DNA of 64,000 nucleotides from Candidatus Parachristensenella avicola (GTDB lineage: Bacteria; Bacillota; Clostridia; Christensenellales; UMGS416), in contig CAJFUN010000023.1 in assembly GCA_904420205.1 (NCBI GenBank), positions 129,409 through 193,408 on the forward strand, written 5' to 3'. Position numbers: made by a program. Shown here in pieces: positions 59,401 through 64,000 of the stretch (position 1 is the stretch's first letter; each line of letters opens with the position of its first letter).

Positions 59401-62400
59401 TTGGCGGATATGGCGATGGCCATTCGTAACCAACGCAAACCCCGAAACGGCGTTAGCCTGACCTATCATATCTTGGATATCATGTGCGCTATCCATGAAT
59501 CCAGCGATCAGGGGCAGCGCATCCGGCTGACCAGCACCTGCGACCGCCCGGCGCTGCTATCGATGAATTTGCTTCCGGGTCAGGTGAATCCATAAATACA
59601 AACTAAGCGGTTTTGAGGCCCGGCGGATCACCCCGCCGGGCCTCTTGCTGCAGATTCTTTCGTTTGTGTGCAAATATACAAAAATTTCTGCATGATTTTC
59701 ATCCCGTCGGAAAGGATAAGCGCGTAGTATAGTAAAGGCATTGACGTTGAGCGGCGCTTGGGGTATAGTAACGAAAAGTCGAAATCAGTCGATGGAGGTT
59801 TGAGATATGCAGAAACAATGGAAGGTTGGCGTGATCGGGTGCACCGGCATGGTGGGGCAGCGATTTATTACGCTTTTAGCAAATCATCCCTGGTTTACCA
59901 TTACGGCGCTGGCCGCCAGTGCCCGTTCGGCCGGCATGCCTTACAGCCAGGCGGTGGAGGGGCGCTGGGCGATGAAAGTCCCCATGCCCGATCGCGTAAA
60001 GGATATGCAGGTACTGGATGCTTCTCAAGTGGAGCAGATTGCGCCGCTGGTAGACTTTGTATTCTGTGCGGTGAATATGGATAAGGCTGCTATCCGGGCG
60101 ATGGAAGAAGCATACGCCCGGGCAGAGGTACCCGTCGTCAGTAACAATTCAGCCTGCCGTGGGCTAAACGATGTGCCTATGGTGATCCCGGAGCTCAACC
60201 CGGAGCACCTGCGGGTGATCGAAACGCAGCGCATGCGGCTGGGCACACGACGCGGCTTTATTGCGGTCAAGCCAAACTGTTCGATTCAGAGCTATGTGCC
60301 AGCCCTGCACCCGCTGCGCGAATTCGGCGTAAAAAAGGTGCTAGCCTGTACCTATCAGGCCATATCCGGCGCCGGGAAGACCTTTGAAACTTGGCCGGAA
60401 ATGGTGGACAATGTGATCCCCTTCATCGGCGGCGAGGAACAAAAAAGCGAGCAAGAGCCGCTGAAGATTTGGGGCACGCTGAAGGACGGCGTAATCGTTA
60501 ACGATACGACCACGGATATTACCACCCAGTGCTTGCGCGTGCCGGTGGCCGACGGGCATATGGCGGCTGTATTTGTCAGCTTTGAGCGCAAGCCTACCAT
60601 GGAGCAGATGATTGAACGTTGGCGCAGCTTTGTCGGCCGCCCGCAGACGCTGGGGTTGCCCAGCGCGCCCCATCCATTCCTGTATTATTTCCAGGAAGAT
60701 AACCGCCCCCAGACGCGCCTGGATCGGGATGCTGGCCGGGGAATGGCGATTTCGATCGGCCGCTTGCGCCCGGATACTCAGTATGACTATAAGTTCGTTT
60801 GCCTGTCCCACAATACGCTGCGCGGCGCGGCCGGCGGCGCGGTGCTGATTGCCGAACTGCTTTGCGCGGAAGGGTATATGGGATAAAAAAGGTTTCTCCT
60901 GCTCAAAATTAGAGCGGGCGGCGATATGGAACGTTTAGAGCATTGCAGCATGATGCTGCAGTGCTCTTTTTCTATCGCGCGTATGCGTTGAGAACGGGTT
61001 AATCTATTTTGCGAAGGGAGAATAAAGCAGAATTATGCATACAAAAAGCATAATGCGCGTGGTAAAATCACGAAAAAACAGCAAGAAAGAGCCTGTAAAA
61101 TGGAAAATTCATCCATTGGAAAAGAATTTGTTTTGGATCAAGTCATGACAACGGCTATCCAGATACCGGGGGTAAAAGTAGATCGAAAAGCGTTCCTGGC
61201 GGAATCCTTTGCATCAGACAGTGAAAATTTGGAGGAAATTCTAGCGGTAGGGTCTGTTGAAGCCGGCGTAATTCAAAAAGAGGAGTTCGAGGAAAAGAAG
61301 CGTGACCTGTTAACCCGGATTTGACAGCGCGCGAACCGGCCCAAGCGGATCCAAACGAAGAGAGCGGCTGCAGGCCGCTTTTTTTGATTTCAAAGTAGCG
61401 GGCAAATATATCTATGGAAAGTGGAAACCAAAAACCATACAATAAGAAAAAGCCTGAAAGAAGTGGAGGATCGATCATGGCCGTCGAATTTTATTCTGCA
61501 TTTGCCGGATCTAGGCCCATACGGCTGCGGGAGGCAACCCGCGTCCTGGCTGATCAGTCGATACGGGGACAATATGGGCGAGCGCTTGACGAATACGAAC
61601 CTTTGGACGCAGATATGATTCCCGGATTTGGAGCGATGAACGACCGCCAGCGTTATGATGCCATGATTCGGTTGATTGCCCAACGGGCGCCGCTAAGGAT
61701 GATGGAGGGCGAGCTGCTTGTCGGCAGCGCAACGCTGAAGGGCGCAATTGATCACATCGTGCCAGTATATCGGGCGGGAGAACCGGTAATGAGCAGCGTT
61801 AGCCATCTGACCTGCGGATTCGACCGGCTGCTGCGGGAAGGGCTGGATGCATACGAAACCCGTATCCATCATCGCCTTGAGACAGCGGATGAGCGGCAGC
61901 GTCCGGTGCTGGAATCTTTTTTGAACGTGTGCGCATGCATCCGCGTTTGGCACGGCCGCTATATGGAGCTGCTGCGGACGCGCTTGGCGCAAGCGGGAGA
62001 CGAAGCGGAACGGGATTATTATCGCGAGCGCATTGCGGTTCTTGAACCGGTACCCTTTGCGCCGCCAAAGAATTTCCGCCAAGGACTGCAGGCGCTGTGG
62101 TTTGCGTTCGCCTTTGTGCGGCTGTGCGGCAATTGGCCTGGGATTGGCCGGATCGACGCCATGCTGGGGCCGCTGCTTGAAAGGGATTTGCGCCTTGGCG
62201 TGATTACCTTGGATGAGGCCCGGGAATGGATGGCGCACTTCTTCATCAAAGGGTGCGAATGGGTGCGGGTAGATACCCAGAACCGTGGCAGCGGCGACGG
62301 TCAGCATTATCAGAACCTGGTACTGGCCGGACTGGACGCGGAAGGCCGGGAAACGGCTAACGAGGTCACCCGATTGGTATTAGAGGTGGTGGAAGAGCTG

Positions 62401-64000
62401 CCTATCGGAGATTTTCCGATCGCCGTAAAGCTGCGGGAGGATTCGCCTCCATGGTTGATGGAGCTGGCTTGCCGTGTAATGCGCCATGGCAGCGGCGTAG
62501 TGGCGGTATATAATGAAAATCTGGTGGTGCAGGCGCTGGAAGAGTTTGGATATAGCCGCCAGGAAGCCAGCGGTTTTGCCAACGACGGGTGTTGGGAGGT
62601 GCAGATGGCCGGGCAGACGTACTTCGCCTACCAACCCATGGACGCCTACGGCCCTTTTCAGCGGGATGTGTTAGGCATACCCGATGGCGGATATGACTAT
62701 GATTGCTTTGAGGCGCTATATGAGCGGACGCTTTCGGTGCTGTATAGCCAGGTGGATGATTGGCAGCGCCAGGCAGACGATTTCATCCAGCCGGACCGGC
62801 CGGCGTCGGTAGTGGGCCTTTTGACCGATGACTGTATTGACCGGGGAAAGGATTACTTTTCCGGTGGCACCCGCTATAATGTATTCTCGCCGCATATGGG
62901 CGGATTCCCTGATATTGTGAACAGCCTATATGCCATCCGAAAGCTTGTTTTTGAGGAAAAACGGCTGAGCTTTTGCGAACTGATGGACGTCATAAAGGCG
63001 GATTGGGCCGATCAAGAGCTGTTAAGGCAATATGCGCTGCATCGGTATTCATACTTTGGCAATGATAACGACGAGGTGGATGCACTGGCTGCAGACCTTA
63101 CGCGCCGATATATCGACCGGGTTCGTTTGGTTAAGGAGCGCTGTGGCGTATTGCGCCCTGCCGGGATCAGCACCTTTGGGCGGCAGATTGAATGGGCGCC
63201 GGGCAGAGCGGCCACAGCCTTCGGTCAGAAAAAGGGTGCGATTCTTTCCGGCAATCTGAACCCGACGCCGGGGACGGATGTAAACGGCGCCACCGCCATC
63301 ATCCGCTCCCACTGTAAAGCGGACTTGCGGCGGCTGACTTGTGGGACCGCACTGGATATCAAGCTGGATACTTCGGCGCTTAAGGGAGAGGCGGGCGTGC
63401 CGGCCCTGCAGGCGCTGATCCTGGGCTTTATCCGGCTGGGGGGATTTTTTATGCAGATCGATGTGATGGATAACGAGGTGCTGAAGCGGGCGCAGGCGCA
63501 CCCGGAGGAATATCAGACCTTGGCTGTGCGTATCTCAGGATGGTCGGCGCGATTTGTCACCCTGGATGAAGCATGGCAGAGAATGATCATCGAGCGCAGC
63601 GCTCAGCGGGGGATTTAAGATGAAGGGGATTGTTGCGGACATCCAGCGTTTTTCTGTTCACGATGGACCGGGTGTGCGCACTACTATTTTCCTGAAGGGA
63701 TGCCCGCTTCGGTGCCGTTGGTGCCATAACCCGGAAACGCAGCTGCCGAAACCGCAGATACAATTGACGCACATGCGCTGCCTGGGCTGCGGCGCCTGTG
63801 TGGCAGCCTGCCCGAACGGGGCCCATCAGCTTAGGGCGGAGGGACACCGATATGAATCGGATCGGTGCACACACTGCTTAGCCTGCGCGCAAGCCTGCAT
63901 GCCGGGGGCTATTGAGATATGCGGCCGCCTTTGGGAAACAGAGGAGGTGCTGCAGATGGCGCTGCGGGATCGCGCCTTCTATGGCTCGTCAGGCGGGATG

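Follow-up and report, generated by a model that had tools for sequence, protein, structure and literature searches.

The locus described here raises the question of what chemistry is carried out by a glycyl radical enzyme (GRE) that is shorter than the known eliminases of its superfamily and that has a tryptophan in the middle of its Cys-x-Glu active-site loop. The gene lies at positions 61477–63618, on the plus strand, of a 64,000-nucleotide stretch of the Candidatus Parachristensenella avicola genome (positions 129409–193408 of contig C23; this whole stretch is referred to below as the window), and it is followed by the gene for an activating enzyme. The two genes very probably constitute a real GRE system belonging to an uncharacterised family of compact enzymes, which we call the C-W-E family after the three central residues of the loop. 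Judging from the residues that this family conserves, we consider it rather likely that the product is a functional GRE of the eliminase or isomerase type, applying known chemistry to a polar, hydroxylated substrate that is new to GREs.

Gene boundaries, motifs and activase

The open reading frame (ORF) is open from 61414 to 63618, and translation from the ATG at 61477, which has the Shine-Dalgarno sequence GGAGG (61465–61469) 7 nt ahead of it, gives a protein of 713 residues. This protein matches the Pfam models for the pyruvate formate-lyase (PFL)-like domain (PF02901, 270.8 bits) and the Gly_radical domain (PF01228, 72.8 bits against a cut-off of 22.2), and it contains the elements by which members of the superfamily are recognised, namely the 10-stranded PFL-like barrel, a Cys loop with the thiyl cysteine, and a C-terminal loop of the RVxG[FYW] type. 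The Cys loop, NDGCWEV, is encoded at 62581–62601 and comprises, by alignment with glycerol dehydratase (GDH) and propanediol dehydratase (PD), the thiyl Cys372 (62590–62592), Trp373 and Glu374. The Gly loop, RISGWSARF, is encoded at 63529–63555; residues 685–689 form the RISGW segment, with the radical-bearing Gly688 (63538–63540) followed by Trp689. The gene, its start and both loops are as they had been read in the original prediction, which was made from the sequence of the window. The adjacent Cys-Cys pair of the PFLs is absent, the loop reading GCWE, and the model TIGR01255 gives 70.5 bits against a cut-off of 994.

The original prediction had also noted that the protein looks shorter than the known eliminases, and had pointed to a start codon further upstream as a possible source of ordinary length. 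A word-indexed search over 5.8 billion proteins returned more than 100 relatives at 48–91% identity, which cover 99–100% of the 713-residue form, are themselves about 695–725 residues long, and have N-termini that align from residues 1–5. The 21 extra residues that would be supplied by a start at 61414 are therefore unsupported, and this start, which has no Shine-Dalgarno sequence, whose additional residues are not conserved and against which the length of the homologues (700–722 residues) speaks, was rejected. An intrinsic-terminator-like hairpin on the plus strand (AGCGGC-TGCAG-GCCGCT followed by T7, 61363–61386) and a sigma-70-like promoter match on the same strand (TGGAAA-17-TACAAT, 61415–61443) fall before and within this extension, respectively. 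The hairpin was read from the sequence, with the same stem scanned on the minus strand, and the promoter is a match to the consensus only, about one such site being expected from shuffled controls. An Rfam scan of positions 60800–61600 with E values up to 1 gave no match to a leader RNA or riboswitch ahead of the gene. Alignment with MAFFT L-INS-i shows that PD, HypD, CutC and HpfG have a segment of about 74 residues ahead of the first barrel strand that this GRE lacks, and smaller deletions relative to the canonical enzymes are found elsewhere in the chain. On these comparisons, the short length is genuine and is a property of the whole family.

The gene for the GRE-activating radical S-adenosylmethionine (SAM) enzyme begins 1 nt past the GRE stop codon and occupies positions 63620–64000 of the plus strand, so that the first 127 of its 301 residues are encoded inside the window; in the genome the gene is complete and ends at C23:193933. 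The CX3CX2C motif (CPLRCRWC, 63701–63724) and the two ferredoxin-type CX2CX2CX3C clusters (63779–63811 and 63866–63898) are present as predicted, and the full protein passes TIGR02494 with 287.1 bits against a cut-off of 174.35. When the GRE gene is compared with its orthologue in an uncultured Clostridiales metagenome-assembled genome (locus L006), whose product is 90% identical, the ratio of nonsynonymous to synonymous substitution rates (dN/dS) is 0.073 at a dS of 0.82 by the Nei-Gojobori method. The GRE-activase pair is intact and under purifying selection.

Placement, signature residues and distribution of the family

No curated equivalog cut-off of NCBIfam is reached by the GRE. The best match is to TIGR01774, the model for the PFL2/glycerol dehydratase subfamily, with 275.3 bits against a cut-off of 678.2. 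It is followed by the models for HypD (252 bits, cut-off 1100), PflD (233 bits, cut-off 1109), HpsG, HpfG and CutC (224, 208 and 203 bits, cut-offs 1000–1050), and by those for the indoleacetate and 4-hydroxyphenylacetate decarboxylases (183 and 152 bits), the cut-offs of all these models lying within 1000–1150. Sequence matches in the PDB are roughly equidistant from the GRE, with E values of 1e-62 to 1e-46, and no relative closer than 24% identity was found among characterised enzymes in NCBIfam, in Pfam, in the PDB by sequence and fold, or in the literature.

Trees were computed from family members, 40 other compact GREs from genomes of the same class (Clostridia), canonical enzymes labelled by NCBIfam score (HypD 1434–1463 bits, CutC 1653, HpfG 1436), and the genome's own PD-type, compact GCIE-type and PFL proteins; for GDH, IslA, HpsG, YbiW/PflD and HplG, the comparison is by PDB and NCBIfam scores only. 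The C-W-E family is monophyletic, with a support of 100 in the Shimodaira-Hasegawa-like approximate likelihood ratio test (SH-aLRT) and a stem of 1.1–1.4 substitutions per site. The family is joined by other compact clades (SH-aLRT 94–97) and falls outside the clade that contains HypD, CutC, HpfG and the PD-type enzymes (94–100). An exhaustive HMMER search of 1.84 billion representatives likewise sets the family apart, with about 19 full-length clusters at 50% identity scoring 490–730 bits and the next full-length GREs at most 310 bits. The original prediction had named as one possible refutation that the protein might cluster inside a characterised subfamily sharing the same loop; the phylogeny instead places it in a discrete, unnamed, monophyletic family. 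A literature search found no paper on this family, and a 2026 review, according to which whole GRE clades remain unvalidated, lists no enzyme of this kind (PMC13450708).

Among the 66 family members that were aligned (49–90% identity), N369, D370, G371, C372, W373, E374, G688, W689 and H110 are invariant. The residue between Cys and Glu had been given in the original prediction as Val or Ile in characterised enzymes, which would make Trp unusual, and so it proved: all 30 canonical PFL2-type enzymes drawn from 150 genomes of the class read GCVE, GCVE is also the sequence in the solved structures of PD, GDH and PflD (two for the last), and HplG reads GCIE. The same position is far more variable among uncharacterised compact GREs, in which I, Q, T, N, S, G, Y and W all occur. 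An aromatic residue (Trp or Tyr) after the catalytic Cys, in column 373, and a Trp after the radical Gly, in column 689, are found together in 28 of the 31 sequences that have either (28 + 39 concordant and 3 discordant), all in one superclade of compact GREs. Co-variation of the two columns as a sign of functional coupling was rejected, the tree needing 2–4 changes and an independent-pairs test giving p = 1; the two features may be shared-derived characters of the superclade, with a link that is inherited rather than functional. The clade that groups with the C-W-E family at SH-aLRT 94–97 is a case of this kind. Its members, also uncharacterised, are compact (about 740–750 residues) and have an aromatic residue after the catalytic Cys (GC[YW][ED]) and a Trp after the radical Gly (RVCGWN), but they are only about 30% identical to the C-W-E enzymes and lack the NDGCWE, IKGCEW, GDxQHYQN and GISTFGRQ signatures.

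Of 185,579 species genomes, at least 593 contain the peptide patterns FANDGCWE and F[FW]IKGCEW. Even sampling of the class found a single copy in 15 of 299 other genomes (about 5% of the sampled genomes), which belong to 9 of 178 genera, and none of the 11 sampled genomes from the window's own order carries the family. The GC content of the GRE gene (57.5%) and its GC content at third codon positions match the genome (56.7%), so that composition gives no signal of horizontal transfer.

Short GREs of several other kinds are common in Clostridia. Many genomes of the class have 5–7 PFL2-like matches, mostly of compact types with 270–470 bits on TIGR01774, and one genome of the class (G147:C69:4531–15708) has four compact GRE genes in tandem on a single contig. 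The 2.96-Mb genome studied here encodes four further glycyl-radical proteins (C5:17479–19677, C8:65806–68430, C23:32438–34684 and C44:6609–8822). These are a canonical PD-type GRE (GCVE) on contig C8, a true PFL (ACCVS) at C23:32438–34684, a second compact GRE of another family (GCIE/RVSGF, about 705 residues) with an AraC-like gene just upstream, and an NrdD.

Fold, active site and candidate chemistry

An AlphaFold2 model built on the 66-sequence alignment has a mean per-residue confidence (pLDDT) of 92.5 and a predicted template modelling score (pTM) of 0.93, with residues 261–280 as its sole soft region. The full barrel is present in the model, and a Foldseek comparison with the PDB gave template modelling (TM) scores of 0.83–0.86 at 20–24% identity to PD, GDH, CutC, HypD, HpzG, PflD, HplG and YbiW alike; no single solved enzyme stands out as the nearest to the predicted structure. 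In HMMER and MAFFT alignments, C372, E374 and H110 (codon 61804–61806) pair with C433, E435 and H164 of GDH and with C438, E440 and H166 of PD. The last of these columns is that of the general-acid His of the dehydratases; His is likewise found there in HypD and HpfG, and Asp in CutC. The C372-W373-E374 segment has the Cys-x-Glu arrangement of the GRE 1,2-eliminases and isomerases, all characterised members of which retain it with the Glu bonded to a substrate hydroxyl (PMC13450708), and the assignment of the protein to this branch in the original prediction fits with these pairings.

The residues that bind the diol in GDH are not preserved. H281 and S282 of GDH correspond to P221 and G222, which sit in an invariant W-P-G-I-G-R-x-D, and Y640 corresponds to S565, while Y278 pairs with Y339 of GDH. 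The strand that carries L698 and I700 in CutC has S565 and F567 in the family, with R569 next on that face, and the loop ahead of the third strand reads G-D-x-Q-H-Y-Q-N as against A-G-Y-S-L-F-Q-N. Asp274, Gln276, His277, Asp389, Ser565, Thr566 and Arg569 are invariant polar residues that replace the diol ligands, and Gln570 is nearly invariant. In the fold comparison and the alignments, the likeness to the eliminases that the original prediction had proposed to check extends to the fold and the catalytic triad and not to the diol ligands. The pattern suggests that the means of abstracting hydrogen, of deprotonation and of protonating the leaving group have been kept and that the pocket has been rebuilt for a more polar substrate.

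These replacements bear directly on whether the enzyme might simply share the function of a known GRE, as a stand-alone glycerol/1,2-propanediol dehydratase acting on freely diffusing small diols. PD of Roseburia inulinivorans (PDB 5I2A/5I2G) and GDH of Clostridium butyricum (PDB 1R8W/1R9D) are the best matches in both sequence (E about 1e-61 to 1e-62) and structure (TM 0.86). They share with the C-W-E enzyme the 10-stranded barrel, the Cys-x-Glu loop, the Gly loop near the C-terminus, the general-acid His column and an activase with two extra ferredoxin-type clusters; the Cys/Glu/His triad is retained, and the lack of transporter and pathway genes would suit a membrane-permeant substrate that yields an aldehyde for general dehydrogenases to process. 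However, identity to PD and GDH is just 22–24%, no higher than to CutC, HypD or PflD, the cut-off of TIGR01774 is not reached, and the present GRE is about 75–130 residues shorter, the segment before strand β1 being gone. It has Trp where PD and GDH have Val in the Cys loop and Tyr after the radical Gly, and it has Asp, Gln, His and Arg at pocket-lining positions in place of small or hydrophobic residues. Microcompartment genes are absent around the C-W-E family, and a canonical PD-type GRE is already encoded on contig C8 of the same genome. Taken with the loss of the three GDH ligands, this makes a diol dehydratase improbable.

The Cys-x-Glu loop is also common to CutC, IslA/IseG and HpsG (PMC13450708), and the enzyme could in principle be a C-N or C-S lyase that acts on, for example, an amino alcohol or a hydroxy-sulfonate and whose leaving group would be an amine or sulfite and neither water nor an alkoxide. 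An ammonium group might be bound by the invariant Asp274 and Asp389, and an anion by Arg569. Nevertheless, CutC has Asp at the column of the family's His110, the conserved Arg-Gln-Arg triad of the sulfonate lyases (PMC13450708) has no matching pattern in the C-W-E GRE, the scores on the CutC, HpsG and HpfG models are far below their cut-offs, and no sulfite-reductase or amine-handling genes recur near the family loci. A lyase of this type is unlikely.

A second cysteine, Cys260, lies in the motif I-K-G-C-E-W (Cys260-Glu261-Trp262, 62254–62262), of which G259, C260, E261 and W262 are invariant and restricted to the C-W-E family. By alignment, the motif belongs to the β2-β3 connection, which in solved GREs holds a cap helix over the active site (PMC13450708), and the segment adjoining C260, which the motif precedes, is the only low-confidence part of the predicted structure. 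A different radical chemistry that employs Cys260 together with Cys372, such as a reductive or two-thiol mechanism, might be imagined on these grounds. We give it little credence, for the Cys-x-Glu loop and His110 are fully retained and are accounted for by the canonical mechanism, and a buried structural cysteine is the simpler reading of Cys260. We also think it unlikely that the family is a new functional class of GREs, that is, a self-contained and usually AraC-switched module that would carry out a radical reaction new to the superfamily on a polar metabolite common in the guts of herbivores and humans, with the C260–W262 triplet beside the cap region acting alongside the Cys372/Glu374 loop.

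The genomic context of the family was surveyed in 83 loci (80 species loci of the genome collection, two more, and that of the window) by crude ORF calling and BLAST clustering. Only two neighbours recur. The activase is directly downstream in 42 of the 72 loci with room for it, a few more having been missed by the crude caller, and a divergent AraC-type regulator is directly upstream in 25 of the 71 loci with room; the Pfam-annotated contigs P0003, P0025 and P0082 give the same picture. One carrier of the AraC-GRE-activase arrangement, Hydrogeniiclostridium mannosilyticum ASD2818, is in culture. In a Pfam tally of 70 operon-like partners, an FGGY carbohydrate kinase replaces the activase directly downstream of the C-W-E GRE in three species (L016:2543–4336, L017:10126–11742 and L020:12514–14349), and the GRE shares a gene set under a DeoR regulator with a 2-hydroxyacid dehydrogenase and a GDPD phosphodiesterase in three species (L085:5058–14224, L070:7997–12948 and L076:2521–7475). 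The first of these latter loci, L085, also encodes another, unrelated GRE (RLYGF loop), an activase lying upstream and a metallo-beta-lactamase-fold protein downstream, and L070 and L076 have no adjacent activase. Other rare partners are a xylose-isomerase-like TIM barrel and GH2, each in at most three loci, and Gfo/Idh/MocA. The rare neighbours hint at sugar, polyol or phosphoester metabolism and are too few to name a substrate.

The reading that we favour, an eliminase- or isomerase-type enzyme with a polar substrate, would have the locus work as a two-gene GRE system, extended in this lineage by a co-oriented phosphohexomutase gene. We infer each chemical step as follows. The activase, with one SAM cluster and two auxiliary [4Fe-4S] clusters, would take the pro-S hydrogen of Gly688 and so generate a stable glycyl radical, which in each turnover would move to Cys372 on the Cys loop. 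The thiyl radical would then take a hydrogen from the hydroxyl-bearing carbon of the substrate, and Glu374 would accept the hydroxyl proton to give a ketyl radical. The ketyl radical would expel the group on the adjacent carbon, with His110 protonating the leaving group, and the product radical would regain a hydrogen from Cys372. This scheme is the chemistry of the GRE 1,2-eliminases and isomerases. Because the diol-binding residues are replaced by invariant polar ones, the substrate is expected to be polar and to be none of the known ones; it is most likely a polar, possibly charged, hydroxylated small molecule, and perhaps one derived from a sugar or polyol.

Two kinds of known system offer partial parallels. 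The isomerases YbiW/PflD, which act on 1,5-anhydrohexitol-6-phosphate, and HplG have the Cys-x-Glu loop, give TM scores of 0.83–0.86 and take polar sugar-phosphate or amino-acid substrates, and the rare kinase, mutase and phosphodiesterase neighbours of the C-W-E family would suit a phosphorylated substrate. These isomerases differ from the family in having Val or Ile between Cys and Glu, the PflD model is missed by a wide margin, and no phosphotransferase-system or aldolase partners recur here. HypD of Clostridioides difficile (PDB 6VXC), which gives the second-best NCBIfam model, resembles the present system as a stand-alone GRE-activase pair of gut Clostridia with Cys-x-Glu and the general-acid His, but the true HypD proteins fall in a different clade, and the D278 column and the S334/F340 region of HypD differ.

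Several observations weigh against an eliminase- or isomerase-type enzyme. The TIGR01774 score, although the best among the NCBIfam models, is 275 bits against 678, and the family lies outside the eliminase clade, so that the mechanism is transferred on the strength of the fold and of three or four residues. The His column discriminates weakly, since it is His in almost all uncharacterised clades as well, and the diol-binding residues of GDH are not kept. D389, invariant past the Cys loop, lies where the loop alignment is uncertain. The positions of Gfo/Idh/MocA genes are scattered as background would give, the pointer to sugars or polyols rests on a handful of lineage-specific neighbours, and all members of the C-W-E family are biochemically uncharacterised.

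Neighbouring genes in this genome and significance of the family

The genes upstream of the GRE in the window are those for Spo0A, SipL, ThuA, Gfo/Idh/MocA and Asd. No microcompartment, transporter or dedicated regulator gene is among them, in agreement with the original prediction, Spo0A being a sporulation regulator. Spo0A (a response regulator with Spo0A_C) and a SipL/SPOCS-domain protein are encoded at 54537–56924, 5–7 kb upstream of the GRE, and these genes mark the organism as a spore-former. Terminator-like hairpins follow Asd and a 74-residue ORF (61100–61324, plus strand), the latter hairpin being that at 61363–61386, which separates this ORF from the GRE gene.

The 74-residue ORF had been described as a small SHOCT-like gene upstream of the GRE, a description that did not hold. 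Its match to SHOCT (PF09851) is below threshold (17.1 bits against a cut-off of 27, E 0.0045). At the matching position, L006 has a 360-residue ORF (8751–9833) with the same N- and C-terminal ends; the two halves of the 74-residue ORF correspond to the first 50 or so residues that follow an internal Met in this longer ORF and to its C-terminal EAGVIQ.EEFEEK, and about 800 nt are missing from the window by BLASTN, with the junction at a repeated E-A-G codon run. The ORF is thus what an in-frame internal deletion has left of a gene of about 340 codons, and it stands outside the GRE system. The intact L006 protein has no Pfam match, and the GC content of the remnant is 43.6%, against 56.7% for the genome.

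Inspection of the genes downstream of the activase, which had been recommended with the original prediction, revealed beyond the window a 575-residue alpha-D-phosphohexomutase (PGM_PMM I–III) at C23:193955–195682, 21 nt past the activase stop codon. The gene, which has a good Shine-Dalgarno sequence of its own, is followed by a terminator and lies about 250 nt from the end of the contig; the protein has no NCBIfam equivalog match. The GRE-activase-mutase order is common only to this genome and L006, and the mutase was rejected as a conserved partner of the family. It is probably a housekeeping gene that is co-transcribed by chance.

The divergent AraC-type regulator is absent at this locus, and no orthologue of it was found in this genome, where the best full-length matches are 29–30% identical. 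One of these matches adjoins the genome's other compact GRE. The missing regulator and the deletion remnant next door might be taken to indicate that the system is a decaying or silent relic without current function in this genome. However, GRE and activase are intact with all catalytic residues present, the dN/dS ratio given above is that of a gene under purifying selection, the GRE gene has a Shine-Dalgarno sequence and a promoter-like site and is coupled to that of the activase, and the sister species L006 retains the same gene order down to the mutase. A relic is very improbable.

The copy described here is an ordinary member of its family, without the AraC regulator and with a co-oriented phosphohexomutase gene, and as such is one more data point. 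What it adds is the site of the deletion of about 74 residues, the comparison of alignment columns with labelled enzymes, the aromatic and Trp residues as possible shared-derived characters, the gap in scores between the family and the next GREs, and the origin of the small ORF as a deletion remnant. GREs, which are oxygen-sensitive radical enzymes, catalyse chemically difficult anaerobic reactions in gut microbes, among them those that lead to trimethylamine, H2S precursors, p-cresol and skatole, and each newly assigned GRE clade has revealed a new route for the turnover of host or diet metabolites. The C-W-E family is one of the clades that still await validation, and it is discrete, compact (about 710 residues), present in at least 593 species-level genomes, and marked by a distinctive conserved active-site signature; with a cultured carrier at hand, the question of its function can be tested at the bench.

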